From an uncultured Candidatus Saccharibacteria bacterium (lineage in GTDB: Bacteria > Patescibacteriota > Minisyncoccia > Phycocordibacterales > JACOZG01), in contig CAYNPK010000001.1 of assembly GCA_964399075.1 (NCBI GenBank), positions 55,457 to 119,456 of the forward strand: a stretch of 64,000 nucleotides of DNA, given 5' to 3'. The translations under genes were made by a program, and so were the position numbers. Of the stretch, positions 3,171 through 25,363 are shown one piece after another (position 1 is the first letter of the stretch; every line of letters starts with the position of its first letter). Under the pieces are notes generated by a model. It saw only the letters and a list, made by a program, of their open reading frames with translations, was not told where the DNA came from and did not search any database.

Positions 3171-3371
3171 TTAATTTAAACTAATCATTACTAAAGCCAA
3201 CAGCGCTATTAGAGCTAGAGGAATGAGAACAGTTAAATAAGTTGTCTCAACGAGAGCGACGACGCGCTTATTCATGGCGAAGCATCGCCAGTGATAAAAG
3301 AGAATCACTGTTATCGCACCAAAGCCGAGTATTAAAATAATATAAACCAACCACAGATAAATATCTATCAT
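3171..3371 (-). CDS. small membrane protein (hypothetical)
   Basis: 66 aa with two hydrophobic helices, immediately downstream of the bPH_2 gene. Confidence 0.25.
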   Translation of the reverse strand: MIDIYLWLVYIILILGFGAITVILFYHWRCFAMNKRVVALVETTYLTVLIPLALIALLALVMISLN

Positions 3372-3421
3372 TAGCTTATTTTAACTTATTCGTGTTATGA
3401 TAACAATGGATATATTAGAAC

Positions 3422-5253: not shown

Positions 5254-6663
5254 TTATAATCCTCCAAAATCGGATTTGTCCATGGTGTGGAAAGTTACTC
5301 GCTCTTCGTCAAAGTAAAGTTGAATTTCTCCCGTGGGGCCATTACGATGTTTAGCAATTAAAATTTCGGCAATATTTTTCTTTTCAGAATTGACGTTCAT
5401 CTTGTCTTCTCGATGGATAAACAAAACCACGTCGGCGTCTTGCTCGATTGAGCCAGAGTCGCGTAGGTCGGAGAGTCGAGGTCTGCCACCGCGTTGTTCA
5501 ACCGAGCGATTGAGTTGAGAAAGGGCTAATACCGGTACATCAAGCTCGCGAGCTAGTCCCTTCAACGAACGAGAGATTTCGGTAATTTGTTGCACTAGAG
5601 AATCGTTTTCTTTCCGCGGGATCATTAATTGGAGATAATCCACGATGATTAAATCTAATCCATGTTCAACCTTAAGCTTTCGTGCCACCCCGCGCATTTT
5701 TACAATATTATTCGACGCTTCGTCGTCAATAAAGATCGGCGCTGTTGCTAGGCGATCTAAGGCGTCGCGAATCCGAGCGAAATCTTCATCAGCTTTAATT
5801 TTGCCTGTGCGCAGATGCCAAGAGTCAACCTTACTCTCGGAAGCTAACAGTCTATCTACTAATTGTTGAGAACTCATTTCTAGAGAAAAAATACCAACAG
5901 ACTTTCCGTATTTACAAGCAACATTACGAGCAATGTCTAAGGCAAGGGAAGTCTTTCCCATTGATGGCCTAGCGGCCAAGATTATTAGATCCGATTTTTG
6001 AAAACCGGCTAATTTATTATCCAGATCGCGAAAGCCAGTTGGCACGCCTCGCATCTCTTGATCTGATTTGTGGAGTTTGTCGAAACGTTCCCAGGCTTCT
6101 ACCAAAGTATCTTTTAGTCTAGTGAAAGTTTTTTTAGAAAAACTACTAATGCCTAAAATGATTTTTTGAGCTTGGTCGAAAACGTCATCAATCTGTTCTT
6201 GTTCGTTGTAGCCTAATTCAGCAATTTCATCAGCGGTATTAATTAATCTGCGTAGGCCGGCTTTTTTGCGAACAATTTCAGCATAATATTTAGCATTGGT
6301 GGCAGAAGGAACCATGTTAATTAATTCCGTAAGATAGGTTGCTCCGCCCAGAACTTCTAATTGTTTCTTTTCTCGCAGAGAACTGGTGAGGGAAACTAGA
6401 TCTATTGGCTCACCTCGATCTTGCAATCCCATCAAGGCATTAAAGATTCGGCGGTGCTTATCAGCATAAAAATCTTTTTCGGTTACTACATCTAGAACCT
6501 CGTACAAAGCATCGGGGCGAATCATTATTGAACCCAACAACGCTTGTTCAGCGACGAGGTCTTGGGGTGGTAAGCGCAAAGAATTTTTAACAAAAGACAT
6601 TTTTGGGACTGATGGCGTGGTCTTTTTTGTTTGAGATTTTTCTTTTTCTTTAAGCTCTGGCAT
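5254..6663 (-). CDS. dnaB: replicative DNA helicase DnaB
   Basis: DnaB N-terminal domain (AEQALLGSIM...), Walker A GKTSLALDIA, RecA-like C-terminus. Confidence 0.95.
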   Translation of the reverse strand: MPELKEKEKSQTKKTTPSVPKMSFVKNSLRLPPQDLVAEQALLGSIMIRPDALYEVLDVVTEKDFYADKHRRIFNALMGLQDRGEPIDLVSLTSSLREKKQLEVLGGATYLTELINMVPSATNAKYYAEIVRKKAGLRRLINTADEIAELGYNEQEQIDDVFDQAQKIILGISSFSKKTFTRLKDTLVEAWERFDKLHKSDQEMRGVPTGFRDLDNKLAGFQKSDLIILAARPSMGKTSLALDIARNVACKYGKSVGIFSLEMSSQQLVDRLLASESKVDSWHLRTGKIKADEDFARIRDALDRLATAPIFIDDEASNNIVKMRGVARKLKVEHGLDLIIVDYLQLMIPRKENDSLVQQITEISRSLKGLARELDVPVLALSQLNRSVEQRGGRPRLSDLRDSGSIEQDADVVLFIHREDKMNVNSEKKNIAEILIAKHRNGPTGEIQLYFDEERVTFHTMDKSDFGGL

Positions 6664-6729: not shown

Positions 6730-8091
6730 TTAGATTTTCTGTATTTTGGGGCCAGAATCAGTGTCTTTGATTGAAAAGCCCTTATTTTCAATTTCCTGAC
6801 GAATTTGGTCGGCCAGGAGCCAATCTTTAGCCTGACGAGCAACCTCTCGTCTATGGGCCAATTCGGTGATTTCTGGGGGGGTTTCGACTGCTTTTAATTT
6901 AGCTAACCCTAGACCTAAAATTTGATCAAAATCAAGCAGGGTCGTCTTTTTATTAGCCGGTTCAATGTCTGGATTCTTGACTAATTCCCAGGTGATGGCG
7001 AGAGCTTGAGGTAAATTTAAATCAGTATTAACCGCTTCAAGAAATTTGTTTTTGTAATTTTTATCAAGTTGACCGTCAGGATAATTAAGTTGCAAATCAA
7101 GAAAAAATTGGTGCAATTTTTGCAAGGCTGTCTGGGCGCTAATCATTGATTGCCAAGTGAAATTTACAAGAGTGCGATAGTGCCCAGTTAGAACCCAATA
7201 ACGGTAAACTAAGGGAGAAAAATCTCGCTTCCTTAAATCTTCAAGAATCAGAAAATTATTAAGCGATTTTGACATTTTTTCTTGTTCAATATTTACAAAC
7301 TCACTGTGGATCCAATACTTAGCGAGCAATTGTCCGGTGATTGCTTGAGATTGTGCCAGTTCATTTTCGTGATGGGGGAAAATCAAATCACTACCCCCAG
7401 TGTGAATATCAAATTTGGGTCCGAGAGTTTTCATACTCATGGCCGAACACTCAATATGCCAGCCGGGACGACCAGCGCCGAAGGAAGCTTCCCAACGAAC
7501 CGACCCATCTTCTGAACGATAGAATTTCCATAACGCAAAATCTCGCTTATCTCGTTTGTTTTGTTCAGATTCTCTTTCTCTCACGCTTTCGTTTTCAGCA
7601 ATTGGTAGGTCTGAAGTAGTGCTCTTGCGAAAATGGCCGTAAGCAGGAAAATCAGCGACACTAAAATAGACTCCATCAGTGCCAACATAAGCAAATCCTG
7701 CTTTAATCAATTGTTCAATTAAAGTGATCATTTCAGAAATATAATCAGTCGCTCTGACTATGTTCGGTTCAATGATATTTAACGACGCTAAATCGTTTAG
7801 AAAAACCTCTTCGTATTTTTTGGTGAAAACGAGAAGTGATTCATTGTGATGGCGACTAGCGGCGATAGTTTTATCATCGACATCAGTAATATTCATGACG
7901 TGTTTGACGTTAAGATTGTTATATTTTAGAGTTCGATAGAGAAGATCGGCGATTAAAAAAGTTCGCCAATTACCAATGTGTGAGTAGTTGTAAACAGTTG
8001 GTCCGCAGGTATACATGCCCACCAAATTGGAATTAAGGGGTTGAAATATTTCTTGTTTTCGCGATAGGGTATTGAAGAGTGTTAAAGTCAT
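6730..8091 (-). CDS. cysS: cysteine--tRNA ligase
   Basis: HIGN and KMSKS class-I motifs, CGPTVY. The true start MTLTLFNTLSRKQ is at 8091 and overlaps the upstream stop in an ATGA arrangement. The ORF-track N-terminal extension to 8226 is spurious. Confidence 0.9.
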   Translation of the reverse strand: MTLTLFNTLSRKQEIFQPLNSNLVGMYTCGPTVYNYSHIGNWRTFLIADLLYRTLKYNNLNVKHVMNITDVDDKTIAASRHHNESLLVFTKKYEEVFLNDLASLNIIEPNIVRATDYISEMITLIEQLIKAGFAYVGTDGVYFSVADFPAYGHFRKSTTSDLPIAENESVRERESEQNKRDKRDFALWKFYRSEDGSVRWEASFGAGRPGWHIECSAMSMKTLGPKFDIHTGGSDLIFPHHENELAQSQAITGQLLAKYWIHSEFVNIEQEKMSKSLNNFLILEDLRKRDFSPLVYRYWVLTGHYRTLVNFTWQSMISAQTALQKLHQFFLDLQLNYPDGQLDKNYKNKFLEAVNTDLNLPQALAITWELVKNPDIEPANKKTTLLDFDQILGLGLAKLKAVETPPEITELAHRREVARQAKDWLLADQIRQEIENKGFSIKDTDSGPKIQKI

Positions 8092-8810
8092 AGCAAAAAT
8101 TGAATGATTAGCGACAACAAAACAAAAACAATCAATATCATGACAGCTAGACGAACCAAACGGACCTTTTTTGCTAGTAATGTTGTTTGAGCTATTTGAT
8201 AAAATTCTACCGTTGCTTGGTGGCAAAGATTCATTGTTTGGCAGATTTTGTCATGAGTCATTATTAGAGTTTTAAATTGAGAATTAAAATTTTCCGGCTT
8301 AAAAAAGTTATTTAGCATTGGTTCAAGCGAGTTTAGTGTGTCTTTAAGTGGCCTCAGAACTAAACGAAAATTATATAAATATTCATTTAATTGGTTAACT
8401 GTTGTTATGCCACTTATTTCTTGATTGGTTTCCAAACATTGTTTCGCCCGCTTCAATTGATCCTTGAGAGCAAATTTCTCCAGTTCTTGTTCACATAGAT
8501 CATACATTGCTTGCAAAATGGACAGAAGGATTGTCCCAGTCGATCGTTCTCGCCCTGTTTTTTCGAAGTTTAATTTATGGCCAAAAATTTTGGCGAAATC
8601 GGTTAAAGTTTTAATTGTCTCGTCGTGGATGGTAATAATAAAGTCTATTCCAGCGATAAAATTAATCGTAGCTTGATGGGGGAGAGTTGCGGTTAAAGAT
8701 AAGAACTGACGGTTTGCTTTATAATCTTTCTCGATTTCTGCCAATTCTTTTTTACTCGGTTTTTCCAAGTCAATCCAGGTAATCTCACGGTAATTAAACT
8801 TTTTTAACAT
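8088..8810 (-). CDS. CorA-like N-terminal domain protein with single C-terminal TM (truncated relative to canonical CorA; no GMN motif)
   Basis: ITWIDLEKPSKKELAEIEK-type CorA N-terminal pattern. One C-terminal TM. Stop overlaps the cysS start. Confidence 0.35.
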   Translation of the reverse strand: MLKKFNYREITWIDLEKPSKKELAEIEKDYKANRQFLSLTATLPHQATINFIAGIDFIITIHDETIKTLTDFAKIFGHKLNFEKTGRERSTGTILLSILQAMYDLCEQELEKFALKDQLKRAKQCLETNQEISGITTVNQLNEYLYNFRLVLRPLKDTLNSLEPMLNNFFKPENFNSQFKTLIMTHDKICQTMNLCHQATVEFYQIAQTTLLAKKVRLVRLAVMILIVFVLLSLIIQFLL

Positions 8811-18443: not shown

Positions 18444-19187
18444 TTAATTTATTGTATCATAACGTGGTGGACCGAGAGAACCGCTAGCTTCTAAGGTAAT
18501 ATCGGCAAAATGGACAGATTGTTCGACTTCGATAACACCCTGACGAACAAGTTCGAGAATACCAAGAAAGCTAACAATAACATTCACCCGCTCTTTCCGA
18601 CCTCTCACTAGATCACGAAAACCTATTTTGAGCGATGACTGAATCCTTTTTGTTAAATCAGCAATGGCCTCTTCCAGACTAATAATTTTACTAACAACAA
18701 TTTTAGGTAAAGTTTCGACCTTGGGAAATAGTGTAATTAAATTTTTAACAGTAGCGACTAGTATTTTTAAATTAATTTCTGGTGTGACAGAAAAAACCGG
18801 GACAATTTCGCGGTTTTGTCCACGAGAAAAAATTATCTTGTTACCAAAACGATTTTTTATTTCACCACTTAACTCTTTTATTTGTTGATAAATTTTTAGT
18901 CGTCGCTCTAGATCAACCATGCTTTCTTGTTCTTCTGGAGTAGTTTCTATTGTTGGCAGAAGAGAAACTGACTTAATCAACATTAGAGTGGCCGCAACTA
19001 AAATAAAATTAGCTCGTCTAGTTTTGTCTGTCCGGTCTAATTTTTCTAAATAGAGGATAAAGTCGTCAGTGACCGTTGCTAACGACACCTGACTAATGTG
19101 GAGTTTTTTGTCCTCAATTAAATTAAGTAGAACCTCTACGGGGCCTTCAAATTCTCCCACTCTTATTTTAAAGGCTTCTTTTGACAC
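18444..19187 (-). CDS. scpA: segregation and condensation protein A
   Basis: FEGPVEVLLNLIEDKKLHISQVSLATVTDDFILYL is a ScpA hallmark. Confidence 0.85.
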   Translation of the reverse strand: MSKEAFKIRVGEFEGPVEVLLNLIEDKKLHISQVSLATVTDDFILYLEKLDRTDKTRRANFILVAATLMLIKSVSLLPTIETTPEEQESMVDLERRLKIYQQIKELSGEIKNRFGNKIIFSRGQNREIVPVFSVTPEINLKILVATVKNLITLFPKVETLPKIVVSKIISLEEAIADLTKRIQSSLKIGFRDLVRGRKERVNVIVSFLGILELVRQGVIEVEQSVHFADITLEASGSLGPPRYDTIN

Positions 19188-20577
19188 TCTGAATATTGAG
19201 TCCTAATTCTGCTAATTGTTTTGGCTCAATGGGAGCTGGTGCGTCCATCATTAAGTCCTTACCTTCACCAGTCTTGGGGAAAGCGATCACTTCGCGGATG
19301 TTGGGTTCGCCGTAAAGTAGGGTGACGAAGCGATCGAAGCCCCAAGCAATACCGCCGTGTGGTGGCGCTCCGGAAGCCAGAGCCTTAAGCATGTGGCCAA
19401 AGTTACTCGCAATCCTTTCCTCAGCAAAACCCATAATTTCGAAAACTTTCTTGAGTGCGTCTGGTTGATGGTTGCGAATACTGCCACCGCCAATCTCGAA
19501 ACCGTTTAGAGCCACGTCGTATTGAGTGGTAATGATCTCGCCAATTTTCTCTTTATTCATCAGCCAAGCTTCGTGTTCCGGAATAGCGCGAGAGAACGGA
19601 TTGTGAGTGAAGGTCCAACTACCATCTTCTGTTTTCTCGAAGAACGGAAAATCAATCACCCAACAGAAAGCGAGTAAGTTTGGATCATTCTTGTCCTCAC
19701 GCATATCTGGACGGTCGGTACCATACTTCTCCATCGCTTCCTTGTAAGTGATGCGGGGAAAAGGAATTTGTTGGATCTTTTTTTCTGGTGCTAAAGTCTG
19801 CACAATCTTGATTAGGAGTTCTTCATTGAGCGCCATCACGTCATCACGATTAACGAAAGACATTTCCATATCAAGTTGAGTGAATTCTGGCTGACGGTCG
19901 CCACGAGTATCCTCGTCTCGCAAACAACGAGCAAATTGGAAATATCTTTCCAAACCAGCTACCATTAATAATTGTTTGTATTGTTGCGGTGATTGCGGTA
20001 GGGCGTAGAATTTACCGGGGTCAAGACGCGACGGAACAACATAATCTCTAGCTCCTTCCGGTGTAGATTTTGTCAAAATCGGCGTTTCTACTTCCACAAA
20101 ACCTTCTTTGGACAAGTGGTCGCGAATGAATCTCATAACCTTATAGCGATTTCTAATATTCTTTTGTAGGCGTTCACGCCTTAAATCTAAATAACGATAT
20201 CTAAGACGTGCTTCCTCATTAATTTCATAGCCTGGAGTGTCAATCGAAATTGGTAAAGTCGAAGCTTCATTGAGTACATTTAAAGAGAGAATTTCAATCT
20301 CTAAGTCACCGTTTAATATTTTGGAATTAATATTTTTTTCTGGACGTTTATTAACTTTACCGATTATTTCTATCACCCATTCCGGACGAACTTTTTCAGC
20401 AATTGCGTGAACTTCTGCGTTGTTTGGCAAAGCTACCATTTGCACCTGACCGCTTTTATCTCGCAAATCCATAAAAATTAATTTACCTTGATCACGACGA
20501 GAGTTTACCCAGCCGGCCAAACGCACCTCGGCGCCAATCTTATCAGTTAGTTGATCAATATAAATTCGCTTATTCAT
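19168..20577 (-). CDS. aspS: aspartate--tRNA ligase, short (archaeal/type-2 like, no GAD insertion); could be non-discriminating
   Basis: Class IIb anticodon-binding OB-fold N-terminus. Motif 3 GGGSIRNH...PHGGIAWGFDRFVTLL...IREVIAFPKT. 469 aa. Confidence 0.7.
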   Translation of the reverse strand: MNKRIYIDQLTDKIGAEVRLAGWVNSRRDQGKLIFMDLRDKSGQVQMVALPNNAEVHAIAEKVRPEWVIEIIGKVNKRPEKNINSKILNGDLEIEILSLNVLNEASTLPISIDTPGYEINEEARLRYRYLDLRRERLQKNIRNRYKVMRFIRDHLSKEGFVEVETPILTKSTPEGARDYVVPSRLDPGKFYALPQSPQQYKQLLMVAGLERYFQFARCLRDEDTRGDRQPEFTQLDMEMSFVNRDDVMALNEELLIKIVQTLAPEKKIQQIPFPRITYKEAMEKYGTDRPDMREDKNDPNLLAFCWVIDFPFFEKTEDGSWTFTHNPFSRAIPEHEAWLMNKEKIGEIITTQYDVALNGFEIGGGSIRNHQPDALKKVFEIMGFAEERIASNFGHMLKALASGAPPHGGIAWGFDRFVTLLYGEPNIREVIAFPKTGEGKDLMMDAPAPIEPKQLAELGLNIQSVKRSL

Positions 20578-20641: not shown

Positions 20642-21241
20642 TTATTTTCGCCCCAAAGTGATCTCAATGCCGATTGAACCATACCAGCCGTCAAGATCAA
20701 CATCGGCGCGTCGAGTGAAAGTTTCCGTGAAGTGATAGCCCATTCCCCAAACCACTCGCCAGTCTTTGCTTTTGCTGATCGGAATTTCTCCAATGGCTCC
20801 CAAATTAAGACCGAGACCAGTAAACTGATCCGGGGTGGTCAATTTGATGGGTCCTAGTCTGCCCATCATCCGATAGCGAGCTTGATAGGCTTCCAGACCA
20901 AGGTCTAGTCCCATCACTCGACTGGTTATCGGGAAATAGTGAACGCCCAATCCCCCAGAAACAAATGACCCTTCAGCTTGGCCAGCCAGAACCGGGTGGG
21001 TGGCTTGCACCCCTCCCTGATTGAACTGCAGTTGAGCATAAGCGTCAAGGTTGTCAGTCAAGCGCTGTTTAGCTCGCAGTTCCCACAGCGGAATAACAGC
21101 CTTAGCTCGCATTCCGTTGTATTTGCCACTAATTTGACGTGTAGCAAGGCCCAAGCTACCCCGATCGGGACTAATAACACAAGCCCCCAGAAAACCAGAT
21201 AGTCCTATCAAAACCAGAATTGACGCCTTTCTGATAGTCAC
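20642..21241 (-). CDS. lipoprotein with outer-membrane beta-barrel-like C-terminal region (OmpW/OmpX-like pattern); high GC
   Basis: GTG start with GGAG RBS. Signal plus lipobox LGAC. Alternating-hydrophobic strands (VHYFPITSRVMGLDLGLEAY, WRVVWGMGYHFTE, GWYGSIGIEITLG). GC well above neighbours. Confidence 0.5.
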   Translation of the reverse strand: MTIRKASILVLIGLSGFLGACVISPDRGSLGLATRQISGKYNGMRAKAVIPLWELRAKQRLTDNLDAYAQLQFNQGGVQATHPVLAGQAEGSFVSGGLGVHYFPITSRVMGLDLGLEAYQARYRMMGRLGPIKLTTPDQFTGLGLNLGAIGEIPISKSKDWRVVWGMGYHFTETFTRRADVDLDGWYGSIGIEITLGRK

Positions 21242-21336: not shown

Positions 21337-22317
21337 TTATCTCACCCCGATCTTCTGACGAACTGTCGCTAATTTCAATTTAGCCAAATCTCTCGCTCGA
21401 CTTGCTCCGTTGGCTAGAATCTGCTCAACATCGTCAACGTTTTTCGCAATACTTGCTCGTCGTTCAACCAGAGGTGTAAGCATCGTGTTAATATTTTTAA
21501 TTAAAATTTCTTTTGATTCTTTATAGCCAATTTTCCCTTCCAGATAACGACTCTCCAGTTCTGGAAGTTGACCTTCAGAAAATAGCTTATGCAGAGCAAA
21601 CACATTGCATTTCTCTGGGTCTTTAACTTCATCGGTTGATTTAGAATCAGTCACAATACTCATGACTAATTTTGCTACTTCTTGTTCGTTAGCAAAAAGT
21701 GGAATAGTATTGTTATAACTTTTACTCATCTTGCGACCGTCAATCCCTGGTATGGTCTTAATTTTATCCAGAATCAATGGCTCCGGAAGGTGGAAGGTGT
21801 CGTCAAACAATCGATTGAACTTCTCGGCGGTGTCACGAGCAATTTCCACATGCTGTTTCTGGTCTTGCCCGACTGGCACCACATCAGCGTCGTATAGCAA
21901 AATATCAGCCGCCATCAGTAATGGATAAGCAAAAGTTCCCACGCTCACTTCCACCCCTTTGCTAAGGGCGTCTTTATAAGCGTGAGCTCTCTGTAGATAA
22001 GGCACAGTAGTGAGACAATTGAAAATCCAAGCTAACTCTGTGTGTTCCGGCACCTCTGATTGTTTAAAGAGAATCACTCGCTCTGGATCAAGACCGATAG
22101 CGAGATAATCTATAGCCATATCCAGAGAATTTCGTCGGAGATGAGGCGCTCGATGTTCAGTTGTTAGGGCGTGATAGTCGACAATCATAACCAAACTCCG
22201 GTATTCATCCTGAAGGTCTACAGCCTGTTTGAGAGCACCAAAATAATTACCAATATGCGGTCGCCCAGTTGGCTTAATTCCTGTAACTAAAATTTTCTGT
22301 TTGTTACTAGTTTCCAT
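21337..22317 (-). CDS. trpS: tryptophan--tRNA ligase
   Basis: TGIKPTGRPHIGNYFGAL (HIGH-type) and KMSKS. Confidence 0.9.
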   Translation of the reverse strand: METSNKQKILVTGIKPTGRPHIGNYFGALKQAVDLQDEYRSLVMIVDYHALTTEHRAPHLRRNSLDMAIDYLAIGLDPERVILFKQSEVPEHTELAWIFNCLTTVPYLQRAHAYKDALSKGVEVSVGTFAYPLLMAADILLYDADVVPVGQDQKQHVEIARDTAEKFNRLFDDTFHLPEPLILDKIKTIPGIDGRKMSKSYNNTIPLFANEQEVAKLVMSIVTDSKSTDEVKDPEKCNVFALHKLFSEGQLPELESRYLEGKIGYKESKEILIKNINTMLTPLVERRASIAKNVDDVEQILANGASRARDLAKLKLATVRQKIGVR

Positions 22318-22400
22318 ATTTTCTCATTATAGCAAAAAATATTATGGTGGTCTAAGTTGCGAATTGTATCTTTCCATAGCTCCCTTTTTGTTTTTCATGC

Positions 22401-22439
22401 AAAAAAAGGACCCCATCCACCAATTGGTGAACGGGGCCC
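22401..22439 (-). terminator. rho-independent terminator of the high-GC 212-aa gene
   Basis: Minus-strand GGGCCCCGTTCACCAATTGGTGGATGGGGTCC followed by TTTTTTT. The core contains the 12-nt palindrome CACCAATTGGTG. Confidence 0.65.
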
Positions 22440-22476
22440 AAGGTCTAAGAATCCAGAAGTTCTGGGATTCCAGACT

Positions 22477-23115
22477 CTAGACACTTTGCGAGACGACAAA
22501 CGCAAAACCGCCGTCAACATTCCACCTGCTGCCGGGCTTGTCGTAGCACGCATGCAGCAAGCGACCGTCGCGGTACGCACCGAGTAAGTGCGGGAGGCCG
22601 AGGGAGTCGAGGATGAGTTTGTGCATGGCGACGATCCAGGCCAGACCCATCTGCTCGATTTCCTTGTCCGTGAACTTCAGACGGATGAGGCAAGCCAGCT
22701 CGGCGTTGGGGGTGGTCAGCTTGCGCCTCTTGGCCTGGGCGCGGATCTTTGAGCTGATCCGGTCCTCGTCTTCGAAGAGCAGGCCCTTGATCACAGCGAC
22801 TTCGGTGGTCACGCCACTCGTCGGTTTGAAGTCCGAGGAACGGAGCAGCTGCTTGGCGTGGTCTCCAATACAGACGCCCTGGCTCTCCAGTCTGGCGATC
22901 CAGTCTTCGCCGGTCGTGCCGTCCGAGGTGACGCTGAAGCGAATGACGCCGTTTTCCTCGTGCCAGGTGCGAATTGGCTTTTGAGCCACGAGCTCGCCGG
23001 CGAGAAATGCCCGGATACCGTTTGCGGTACTCATTCCGGCATCCTGTCCGATCTTCATGAGGGCCGCGTCCAGCTGTCCACGGGTGAAATGATTCAGTTC
23101 GTTGACCCGACCCAT
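22477..23115 (-). CDS. hypothetical protein, high-GC single-gene cassette (no recognisable domain)
   Basis: AGGAGA RBS 6 nt before the ATG and its own terminator. Inserted between trpS and valS. GC visibly far above flanks. Confidence 0.55.
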   Translation of the reverse strand: MGRVNELNHFTRGQLDAALMKIGQDAGMSTANGIRAFLAGELVAQKPIRTWHEENGVIRFSVTSDGTTGEDWIARLESQGVCIGDHAKQLLRSSDFKPTSGVTTEVAVIKGLLFEDEDRISSKIRAQAKRRKLTTPNAELACLIRLKFTDKEIEQMGLAWIVAMHKLILDSLGLPHLLGAYRDGRLLHACYDKPGSRWNVDGGFAFVVSQSV

Positions 23116-23160
23116 GACATTCTCCTTTCGGCTAATTGCCGAAAAATATTCTCGCTACCC

Positions 23161-23239
23161 GCGAGCTGGGGCCAGACCATTGTGGTCATAGCCAAGAAAA
23201 GCCTAGTTTCTAAGTCCCTTTTGGCTATGACCAGCTCGC
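23161..23239. repeat. long imperfect inverted repeat (about 19-bp arms, one arm carrying a 15-16 nt insertion)
   Basis: gcgagctgg[ggccagaccattgtg]gtcatagccaa ... ttggctatgaccagctcgc. Lies between the valS stop and the start of the high-GC gene. Confidence 0.5.
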
Positions 23240-23278
23240 AAATTTTATTAAAGATCAGATACTCCCCTTAGTAGATAC

Positions 23279-25363
23279 CTAAACCACAGATTTGTCAAGC
23301 GTTGGCCACTTGGCCACAAGCAACAATTCTGATTGATTTATTTTCTCCCAAATTGTCTCGGTGATGAAGGGCATCACGGGGTGGATAATCTTCAAAGTTC
23401 GCAATAACACTGTCGCTAAAATTTTACCAGTGTTTTCTTTTAATTTAGGATCTAATAATTGCTTCTTACTCTCTTCAATATATTTATCAGCCAAATCACG
23501 CCAAACGAAATCATATAAGAAGTGGGTAGCCTGACCAAAATTATAATTCTTAATCTGTGCCTCAACTTCAGTAACCGTCTTGTTAAGCGCCGAAATAATT
23601 AGCTTATCAGCATCAGTTAAGGCTGTGAGTTTAGTCTCTTCAATTTTAATTTCTCCACTTTTTTTATCATCAATAGCGCTAACAACATAACGAGAAATAT
23701 TCCAAAGCTTGTTGCAGAATTTTTTTCCAGTGATTAAAATATTTTCATTGAAACGCATTTCCTGACCTTCGAAAGATTGATACAACAAACCAAACCGCGT
23801 GGCATCGGCGCCGTATTTATTAATCATTTCCATTGGGTCAATACCGGTACCCAGAGACTTACTCATTCGCCGACCGTCTTTAGTTAAAATCGTGGCATGA
23901 ATTACCACATCAGAAAACGGTAACTTGTTGGTAAACTCCAGACCGGAAAAGAGCATCCTAGAAATCCAAAGGTGGATAATATCACGAGCTGAAGTGATTA
24001 CTTGCGTGGGGTAAAACTCTGACAAATCTTTAGTTTTCTTAGGCCAACCAAGAGTCGCCAGTGGCCACAGGGCTGAAGAAAACCAGGTATCAAAGGTGTC
24101 AGTGCTATCGGCGATAGGAATAGGGTGTCCCCACCAAATTTGACGCGAAATACACCAATCTCGAACATTCTCGAGCCAGTCAACGGCAACCTTGGTCCAG
24201 CGTTCCGGATAATAAGCTACTTCCCCATTTTTAATCGCTGTCAAAACTTTTTTGGCCAAGGGGGCCATCTTCAAGAACCACTGCTTAGACATCATTGGCT
24301 CCACCGTTGAGTTACAACGATAACACTTGGCTACATTATGAACAGCTTTTTCCTCTTTCTCAATTAGACCTTTCGCTCGTAATTTTTCAACAATTTTTGA
24401 CCTGGCTTCGGAAATTTTCAAGCCAGCAAATTTTCCAGCGATTGGTAAAAGTTTTCCATATTTATCAATAATTAACTCACCATCTAATTTATGGCGTTCC
24501 GCAATCTCGAAATCAACAATATCGTGATAAGGAGTGATCGTCATCACACCAGTGCCGAAATTCATATCAATTGCCTTGTCTTTAATTACAGTGGCGGTCA
24601 CTGGTCCATTGATCCATTCCAGACTAATTTTCTCTCCATGTTCATATTGTTGATAGCGAGTATCATCCGGGTGCATTACAACGTATTTATCACCAAATTT
24701 TGTCTCTGGTCGTGCGGTGGTGATGATAAAAGGTCCATATTTAAGATAATAAAAGATTCCTTCTTCTTCAACATACTCAAGCTCCAAATCAGAGAGGGCT
24801 GTCTGATCTTTAACACACCAATTGATCACTCGCTCACCGCGATAAATCAAACCCTGTTGGTGATAATTTTCAAAAGCTGTTTTAACCGCCTCTTGATAGT
24901 CTTTGTCCATAGTAAAACGAGTTCGAGACCAGTCGCAAGAACAACCGAGAGTTTTGAGTTGGTTTAAAATAATATCACCGTATTTATCTTTCCATTCCCA
25001 GATTTTTTCCAAAAACTTTTCTCGCCCCAAATCATGGCGACTAAGACCTTGTTTTTTTAAATCTTTTTCTACCACATTTTGCGTCGCAATCCCGGCGTGA
25101 TCAGTTCCGGGAAGCCAGAGGGTTTTGTAGCCTTTCATCCTATGGAATCTGATCAATACATCAGAAATAGTATTTTCCAACGCGTGTCCCATATGAAGAG
25201 AGCCAGTCACATTTGGTGGCGCAATGAGAATGGTATAAGGCTCCTTTCTGTCGCCGGGCAAATTATCCGGGTTAAACAAACCACTCTTTAGCCACTTATT
25301 ATAGATTTTCTCTTCAGTTTCTTTGGGATTATATTGCGCTGTTATTTGATCCATTTGAATCAT
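23279..25363 (-). CDS. valS: valine--tRNA ligase (short form, lacks C-terminal coiled-coil)
   Basis: PPNVTGSLHMGHALENT (HIGH) and KMSKSLGTGIDP (KMSKS); 694 aa. Confidence 0.85.
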   Translation of the reverse strand: MIQMDQITAQYNPKETEEKIYNKWLKSGLFNPDNLPGDRKEPYTILIAPPNVTGSLHMGHALENTISDVLIRFHRMKGYKTLWLPGTDHAGIATQNVVEKDLKKQGLSRHDLGREKFLEKIWEWKDKYGDIILNQLKTLGCSCDWSRTRFTMDKDYQEAVKTAFENYHQQGLIYRGERVINWCVKDQTALSDLELEYVEEEGIFYYLKYGPFIITTARPETKFGDKYVVMHPDDTRYQQYEHGEKISLEWINGPVTATVIKDKAIDMNFGTGVMTITPYHDIVDFEIAERHKLDGELIIDKYGKLLPIAGKFAGLKISEARSKIVEKLRAKGLIEKEEKAVHNVAKCYRCNSTVEPMMSKQWFLKMAPLAKKVLTAIKNGEVAYYPERWTKVAVDWLENVRDWCISRQIWWGHPIPIADSTDTFDTWFSSALWPLATLGWPKKTKDLSEFYPTQVITSARDIIHLWISRMLFSGLEFTNKLPFSDVVIHATILTKDGRRMSKSLGTGIDPMEMINKYGADATRFGLLYQSFEGQEMRFNENILITGKKFCNKLWNISRYVVSAIDDKKSGEIKIEETKLTALTDADKLIISALNKTVTEVEAQIKNYNFGQATHFLYDFVWRDLADKYIEESKKQLLDPKLKENTGKILATVLLRTLKIIHPVMPFITETIWEKINQSELLLVAKWPTLDKSVV

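Follow-up and report, generated by a model that had tools for sequence, protein, structure and literature searches.

In a 64,000-nt stretch of DNA from an uncultured Candidatus Saccharibacteria bacterium (contig CAYNPK010000001.1, positions 55,457 to 119,456; the whole stretch is hereafter called the window), a cassette encoding a 212-aa protein lies between the synthetase genes valS and trpS. It is a discrete module with its own promoter, leader, open reading frame (ORF) and terminator, all of which we located, as expected from an earlier note on this DNA that had described the cassette as self-contained. We propose, with a probability of about 0.9, that it is the target module of a diversity-generating retroelement (DGR) of the Patescibacteria type. 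DGRs are known systems by which the tip of a binding protein is rewritten. It is improbable that this identification is itself wrong. The earlier note had seen no recognisable motif in the protein, which is in fact a member of a very large DGR variable-protein family of the Candidate Phyla Radiation (CPR), with a C-terminal variable region (VR).

The 212-aa protein and the retroelements of its relatives

The 212-aa protein has at least 1,494 homologues with 51-71% identity, every one of them from Patescibacteria/CPR, including Parcubacteria, Uhrbacteria, Wolfebacteria, Nomurabacteria and others. Among the GTDB species representatives (one genome per species), 247 stretches carrying a homologue were confirmed, with two in some genomes, and 80 of these (L001-L080) were analysed as related loci. 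When the protein was used as a tblastn query, a second short match (residues ~170-210) was observed ~350 nt downstream of the gene in 36 loci. This match reads SDGDPNLLNANRNDDGRWLNAYNDRPDNRWNRDNGFAFAVSQ and is Asn-rich precisely at the variable columns of the family alignment. At the nucleotide level, 40 related loci contain a ~128-nt copy of the 3' end of the gene ~340 nt downstream, the position of a template repeat (TR). Across the 40 pairs, the mismatches between TR and VR fall on 594 of 1246 TR adenines vs 101 of 4199 positions with C, G or T, and in one locus (L012) on 22 of 31 adenines and none of the 98 other positions. Beside the L012 TR we found a bAvd gene (PF22296, E 5e-10) followed by an RVT_1 reverse transcriptase (RT) gene (E 2e-17), and 29 to 32 related loci have an RT, the number varying with the match-length cut-off. 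In one cluster at 90% identity, variation was seen in 29 of the final 46 columns (up to 8 residue types) vs 26 of 165 elsewhere. The adenine-specific TR/VR mismatches, together with the bAvd and RT genes that follow the TR, identify the family as a DGR variable protein. The window protein aligns over nearly its full length, at the 51-71% identity given above, with targets that have a local TR, bAvd and RT.

In the complete elements, TR, bAvd gene and RT lie ~340 nt downstream of the VR. The TR RNA is copied into cDNA with random misincorporation opposite adenines, and the mutated cDNA then replaces the VR, which re-randomises about a dozen AAY-encoded positions on the ligand-binding face and leaves the scaffold unchanged. 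In L012, target, TR and RT share one strand, and the bAvd gene (7071-7439, minus strand), placed after the TR (6939-7067) and before the RT (7446 onwards), is on the other.

The window protein matched nothing in Pfam, NCBIfam, PHROGs, PADLOC or a PDB sequence search. In the structural check that the earlier note had called for, the AlphaFold model returned matches to the C-type-lectin fold, including TvpA and Mtd, with modest scores; a Foldseek search against PDB returned no significant match. In the predicted architecture, an N-terminal helical domain (approximately residues 1-45) is followed by a C-type-lectin-like domain, that is, the kind of fold (C-type lectin or Ig) that displays the variable residues of DGR targets.

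A structured leader RNA of target genes

The earlier note had drawn attention to a long imperfect inverted repeat just beyond the 5' end of the ORF, with a 15-nt insertion in one arm, and had left it as either a relic of an insertion event or a regulatory structure. The interruption is approximately as described (~16 nt, or 13 nt if a shared TGG is counted twice), and the perfect 13-nt core of the repeat (TGGTCATAGCCAA / TTGGCTATGACCA) is found again in most related loci, at 100-160 nt upstream of the target-gene start. An alignment of 37 of these sequences revealed a common layout, in which a 12-bp helix (P1) is followed by a small internal loop, a nested hairpin (P2) with a length-variable apical loop, a conserved linker, a 4-5-bp hairpin (P3) and finally a 3-4-bp hairpin (P4) against the Shine-Dalgarno sequence. 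Compensatory double changes were observed in 17 of the 27 predicted pairs (alignment A2). Paired cells amounted to 96%, vs 33-45% when the 3' partners were slid by 1-3 columns, and the observed covariation was reached by none of 500 shuffles. One pair is G-U in 33 of the 37 sequences, and several others are occasionally G-U. Because a G-U pair would read A-C on the other strand, and because insertions occur only in the apical loop, the leader is a sense-strand RNA rather than a DNA operator or an insertion scar. A DNA operator was rejected on the same grounds, as the spacing of the arms varies through apical-loop insertions and the G-U pairs are found on the sense strand only. Of the two options in the earlier note, the regulatory structure is therefore the one that stands, while the relic is contradicted by conservation, compensatory changes and strand-specific G-U pairs. 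The linker was also considered as an alternative partner of P2, for which no covariation was visible by eye in the leader alignment.

A covariance model of the leader gave one strong sense-strand match directly upstream of the target gene in ~73 of the 80 loci and a single sense-strand match in the 64 kb of the window, and no match in four control loci around trpS relatives. The search for the repeat elsewhere that the earlier note had suggested thus led to a homologous leader at most related target genes. Rfam 15 contains no family that the window leader matches at gathering score (the best, preQ1-II, scored 18.9 bits, E 3.2). In the loci scanned, Rfam matches were limited to tRNAs, of which the window has four and L012 one, while L023 and L038 gave no match.

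In the window copy, an outer pairing of GCGAGC (23234-23239) with GCTCGC (23161-23166) extends P1 and competes with P3. The minimum-free-energy fold of the window leader (z = -4.1) takes this extended helix, whereas the outer pairing is absent from the alignment of the relatives, in which P3 is kept with compensatory changes. The 5' strand of the window P3 can indeed pair with a conserved GCGAG just upstream of P1, and this alternative, non-conserved pairing accounts for the long imperfect repeat with an insertion that the earlier note had recorded. The P3 variant CTCGC-GGGTA-GCGAG is common to the window, L003 and L061. In the window it is followed by a short U-run, AATATTTTT, and was called terminator-like; no U-run follows P3 in L003, and most family members are without one. 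The window leader might be an attenuator in this copy. More generally, we infer that the leader controls the stability or translation of the variable-protein mRNA, P4 abutting the Shine-Dalgarno sequence.

A candidate promoter of the sigma70 type, predicted from its sequence, lies ~35 nt upstream of the leader, and since it precedes the leader, the leader is a 5' untranslated region. Its family form is TTGACA, 17 nt and TATGAT, TATACT or TATAAT, and the block TTGACAAAT-N-GTTTAGGTGTATGAT/TATACT/TATAAT is found in ~50 related loci at a constant distance from the leader. The window -10 box has C in place of the family's conserved A, and a consensus promoter scan did not call the window block as a promoter. 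The block overlaps the end of valS: the last six codons (LDKSVV) and the stop (23279-23298, minus strand) lie in a segment whose homologue in other cassettes is TTGACAAAT...GTTTAGG. The window ValS ends 7 residues past a conserved W-P, vs 0-6 in homologues, the longest tail among the 40 compared.

The leader extends beyond the 212-aa family. When metagenome contigs were scanned for exact patterns of the P1 arms, at least 120 stretches were returned; among the matches listed, 71 have a downstream ORF, which belongs to the 212-aa family in 43 and to different proteins of ~150-220 aa in 28. The full leader model scored 60-115 bits on the latter cases among those matches. At least two of the other leader-bearing families are DGR targets with their own TR ~340 nt downstream, as exemplified by a '...WWFAGVRK' family (19 of 25 adenine vs 1 of 76 other positions mismatched) and a '...SASVAS' family (15 of 31 vs 0 of 96), and several of these proteins share an N-terminal 'TxGQxxAxxxKLGG' helix with the 212-aa family. 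Since the leader precedes at least three target families, it is a common 5' module of several classes of CPR DGR target. Loci with the leader before other families are among L091-L170 (for example L091, L120, L128, L160, L161 and L162). In one 13-kb metagenome locus (L104), four leader copies (1521-1648 -, 3299-3397 -, 6246-6394 + and 8442-8575 -) suggest a cluster of leader-bearing genes.

Full-text literature searches returned no account of a leader at target genes. The leader might conceivably act in the DGR cycle. It is a speculative and rather unlikely proposal that the leader represents an undescribed class of structured RNA for Patescibacteria DGR targets (at least three families that have a partly shared N-terminal segment and differ downstream of it) that would act in that cycle, for example as a mark on, or a regulator of, target transcripts or loci that are to be diversified, and not in ordinary expression, with the excess of C and of GC at third codon positions (GC3) described below as a second requirement of the cycle.

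Layout, fate and origin of the window cassette

The features of the cassette and its neighbours are listed in Table 1. The AGGAGA ribosome-binding site and the strong terminator with a 12-nt palindrome and T7 named in the earlier note were both found, the palindrome being CACCAATTGGTG (22418-22429) within a 14-bp stem. The span given there for the cassette (22385-23270) does contain the features described there, but the upstream limit is too short, as the conserved cassette begins at the -35 box within the last valS codons. The 86-nt 3' region folds with z = -5.8 vs shuffles. Downstream of ...TCGCAA, the family retains a short tail and a small GC-rich hairpin and then, beyond a spacer, a GC-rich terminator whose T-run leads into CATAAAA; the window has all of these, hairpin and terminator included, and the small hairpin of the relatives at the post-VR site is GGGAC-TTCA-GTCCC. 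The invariant VR end ...GGxTTxGCGTTxGxCGTxTCGCAA and the post-stop hairpin are conserved. In L023, a sequence ~90 nt past the target stop, CTGATGAGTCCGAAAGGACGAAA, resembles a hammerhead ribozyme core, and no Rfam family reached gathering score in that locus.

Table 1 Features of the cassette and flanking genes in the window
Feature	Position	Strand	Description
aspS	19168-20577	same as cassette	Translation and homologues
trpS	21337-22317	same as cassette	Pfam-confirmed
Intrinsic terminator	22401-22439	minus	14-pair stem 22408-22439 (9 G-C), then T7 22401-22407
Post-VR hairpin	22441-22478	minus	Spans stop codon; core CTGGAATCCCAG at 22462-22473
DGR variable-protein (target) gene	22477-23115	minus	212-aa ORF, ATG start; probable identity
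Variable region (VR)	22486-22611	minus	Last ~42 codons to ...TCGCAA; GC-rich invariant 3' end resembling an initiation of mutagenic homing (IMH) site; aligns with TR and VR of relatives
Structured 5' leader RNA, ~150 nt	23110-23258	minus	Covariance model R1, 93.4 bits, E ~ 1e-24
Ribosome-binding site AAGGAGA	23121-23127	minus	5 nt before target-gene ATG
Leader hairpin P4	23129-23141	minus	CGGC-AATTA-GCCG; abuts Shine-Dalgarno
Leader hairpin P3	23151-23165	minus	CTCGC-GGGTA-GCGAG
Long imperfect inverted repeat	23161-23239	minus	Arms 23161-23195 and 23221-23239; P1 plus window-specific outer pairing
Leader helix P1	23221-23233 with 23183-23195	minus	Encloses nested P2 hairpin
Cassette promoter (predicted)	23270-23298	minus	-35 TTGACA 23293-23298, 17-nt spacer, -10 position TCTACT 23270-23275
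valS	23279-25363	same as cassette	Stop at 23279-23281; Pfam-confirmed

No TR, RT, Avd gene or second copy of the cassette was found in the 64-kb window, the RT being sought by tblastn with the L012 RT, and the ends of the window lie 22 kb and 41 kb from the cassette. Thus, neither the RT near the target nor the Avd gene and TR of a complete DGR cassette are there. As the window holds the target module only, its gene would be either a target diversified in trans from a remote site or an orphan. Solitary modules of this kind, with neither TR nor RT, make up 23 of the 52 related loci with at least 2.5 kb on both sides (44%). Comparison of the window VR with the TRs of other genomes was dropped as a test of adenine specificity because TRs differ between genomes, which makes the comparison uninformative; the invariant columns of the family were used instead. 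By this measure, 13 of 27 adenine columns and 1 of 35 invariant non-adenine columns of the window VR depart from the TR consensus of the family.

These values are consistent with an active remote target, for which TR, Avd and RT would lie at a distance of more than 22-41 kb, either on the 353-kb contig itself or on a different one, and the cDNA would home through the conserved 3' end and the downstream hairpin. Trans diversification does appear in the family: the VR of L032, which is solitary, matches a TR located on a different contig of that genome (L036), with mismatches at 17 of 29 adenine vs 5 of 97 other positions, and a second pair (L071/L072) is less clean (16 of 35 vs 13 of 98). The frequency of solitary loci, the intact ORF, leader and terminator of the window copy, and the remote DGR targets documented elsewhere (PMC5758913) point the same way, although targets more than 100 kb away have been seen in another DGR lineage only (Wu et al., PMC5758913). 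We regard this explanation as possible but less likely than not.

Several observations weigh against reading the window gene as a DGR target that is still in use. Besides the lack of a cognate TR or RT in the 64 kb, the window VR has a 6-nt in-frame deletion that is unique among the 37 TRs and 81 VRs compared (118 sequences), and a cognate TR would therefore need to carry the same deletion. Among the 102 columns with a conservation of at least 90%, the window protein is off-consensus at 12, compared with a family median of 3. Two of the VR substitutions, W186L and R200V, are at codons that are adenine-free in the TRs. The -10 box is weakened by loss of its conserved A, and the 90% cluster of the window protein consists of a single sequence on three contigs. 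The deletion, the off-consensus residues, the -10 change and the single variant fit a copy that is no longer diversified.

We therefore lean towards an orphaned target over an active remote one, mainly because homing would overwrite the VR deletion, and also because the -10 box has lost its conserved A. Orphaning is somewhat the likelier account: either TR, Avd and RT were lost or the target module alone was copied to this site, so that the VR would be frozen and the protein would be a fixed binder or drifting. The intact ORF, the well-preserved leader (93 bits), the terminator and the single change at invariant VR positions argue against decay, and thus such an orphaning would be recent, or the protein would still be under selection.

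The earlier note had further proposed that the cassette was inserted between trpS and valS, in part because its composition differs strikingly from that of the flanking synthetase genes. The difference is real. The GC content of the target gene is 0.603 vs 0.409 for the window, and its GC3 is 0.775 vs 0.33-0.40 in valS, trpS, aspS and dnaK. It is also not peculiar to this site: across 75 loci, mean target GC is 0.577 vs 0.441 for the flanks (slope against host GC 0.41), whereas the RT of the same element has a GC of 0.29-0.49, at or below that of its host. Third codon positions of the targets are C 0.41, G 0.28, T 0.17 and A 0.14, vs T 0.34 and A 0.24 in the RTs. The GC3 excess is thus a family-wide trait of the targets and not of the RTs. 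Because nearly all relatives show the GC excess irrespective of host GC, and the RT is not GC-rich, high GC is no evidence of recent import. Two causes were considered. Independent horizontal exchange of the target is unsupported, as target scaffolds and RTs co-diverge (mean pairwise identity 71% and 64%, r = 0.39), and adenine depletion was rejected since T is depleted at third positions as much as A, C being the enriched base.

In the synteny comparison suggested in the earlier note, upstream of trpS, the closest TrpS relatives (68-71% identical) have other genes (unknown ORFs, peptidase M23, ABC ATPase) and no cassette, while the downstream order trpS...aspS-scpA-scpB is kept. Downstream of valS, the ValS relatives (66% identical) have a peptidase S41 or PrsW protease gene and no cassette. 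A 218-aa ORF upstream of trpS in L082 is unrelated. The cassette is therefore discrete, non-syntenic and foreign in composition to its neighbours, which agrees with the proposed insertion, but neither its GC nor its repeat can serve as a mark of insertion. The event itself is not demonstrable, because no relative is close enough to offer an empty site (TrpS and ValS being 66-71% identical and local gene order not conserved).

An autonomous mobile cassette, that is, a small element, either selfish or acquired horizontally, that entered between valS and trpS, with the repeat as its scar or recombination site and the GC as the signature of a foreign donor, would account for the sharp compositional boundaries, the non-syntenic position, the valS frame that runs 6 codons into cassette-homologous sequence, and the several copies in some genomes. 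The tRNA-His found upstream in ~10 of 58 related loci would also agree with it. We consider this origin improbable. The cassette has no transposase, integrase, terminal repeats or target duplication, its single ORF encodes the C-type-lectin protein, and no flanking direct repeat stood out. Moreover, the inverted repeat is internal, covaries and lies on the sense RNA strand, the GC excess belongs to the gene family in every host and is not shared by the RT, and target and RT co-diverge. A phage origin was likewise rejected, as a viral collection of 2.9 million contigs gave 1 match to a homologue.

The tRNA-His(GTG) gene mentioned above is on the same strand as the cassette, sometimes within 100-500 nt of it (L002, L008, L012, L017, L020, L028, L034, L039, L063 and L068), and is absent here; the association could reflect a preferred location or shared subclade ancestry. 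On the other side of trpS, the trpS-aspS gap of the window is occupied by a 199-aa ORF (20642-21241, minus strand) with raised GC (0.50) and a lipoprotein-like N-terminus (..LSGFLGAC..), which had no match in Pfam, NCBIfam, PHROGs or PADLOC. The content of this gap differs among TrpS relatives: L084 has an N6_N4 methyltransferase and a MutH-like gene there, and L082 has unknown ORFs.

Significance and comparison with known systems

The identity of the cassette is largely explained by known biology, as CPR DGR targets are known and abundant. CPR DGRs form a cellular clade whose targets usually have no recognisable domains (PMC8144416), and a large, poorly classified 'CPR set' has been described (Wu et al. 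2018, PMC5758913). What makes the locus worth following up is the covarying leader of several target families, the frequency of solitary targets and a codon bias of the target that the RT does not share. RT-centred pipelines miss solitary targets by design, a limitation stated in PMC8144416, and the leader motif, which appears to be uncatalogued, offers a way to find variable-protein genes that does not depend on the protein and that covers solitary ones too. It further suggests that hypervariable proteins are expressed under regulation, in organisms that have very few regulators. With nearly half of the well-flanked loci solitary, trans diversification or orphaning seems to be common in CPR, whereas earlier surveys had placed remote targets mainly in another DGR lineage (PMC5758913).

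The closest known counterparts of the window protein are the CPR DGR variable proteins (DGR clade 2 of Roux et al. 2021, PMC8144416; 'CPR set', PMC5758913). They come from the same taxon and are likewise small, with a C-terminal VR and without a Pfam domain, signal peptide or transmembrane segment. The relatives of the window gene share with these elements an adenine-specific TR, a bAvd, an RVT_1 RT and the order target-TR-avd-RT, and the family is, like them, cellular and not phage-borne. The window copy differs from them in having no TR, Avd or RT within 64 kb, and no mention of a shared 5' leader or a target-specific GC3 excess was found in the papers searched.

More distant parallels are Mtd of Bordetella phage BPP-1 and TvpA of Treponema denticola. 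The window protein has no detectable sequence similarity to either and its N-terminal domain is different and much smaller, but both are diversified by adenine mutagenesis, as is the window family. Non-adjacent and remote targets are documented among DGRs, and TvpA-type DGRs use remote ones (PMC5758913). At the 3' end, the window family resembles phage BPP-1, which has a hairpin after its GC-rich invariant VR end (PMC3240598); by analogy, the GC-rich VR end and the nearby hairpin may serve target recognition here. Finally, the leader can be compared with RT-10 and other RT-associated RNA motifs (Weinberg et al. 2017, PMC5737381), which are also structured RNAs of DGR loci found by comparative analysis. 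Unlike motifs of the RT-10 type, it has no Rfam 15 match, it stands upstream of the target gene, and it accompanies solitary targets as well.

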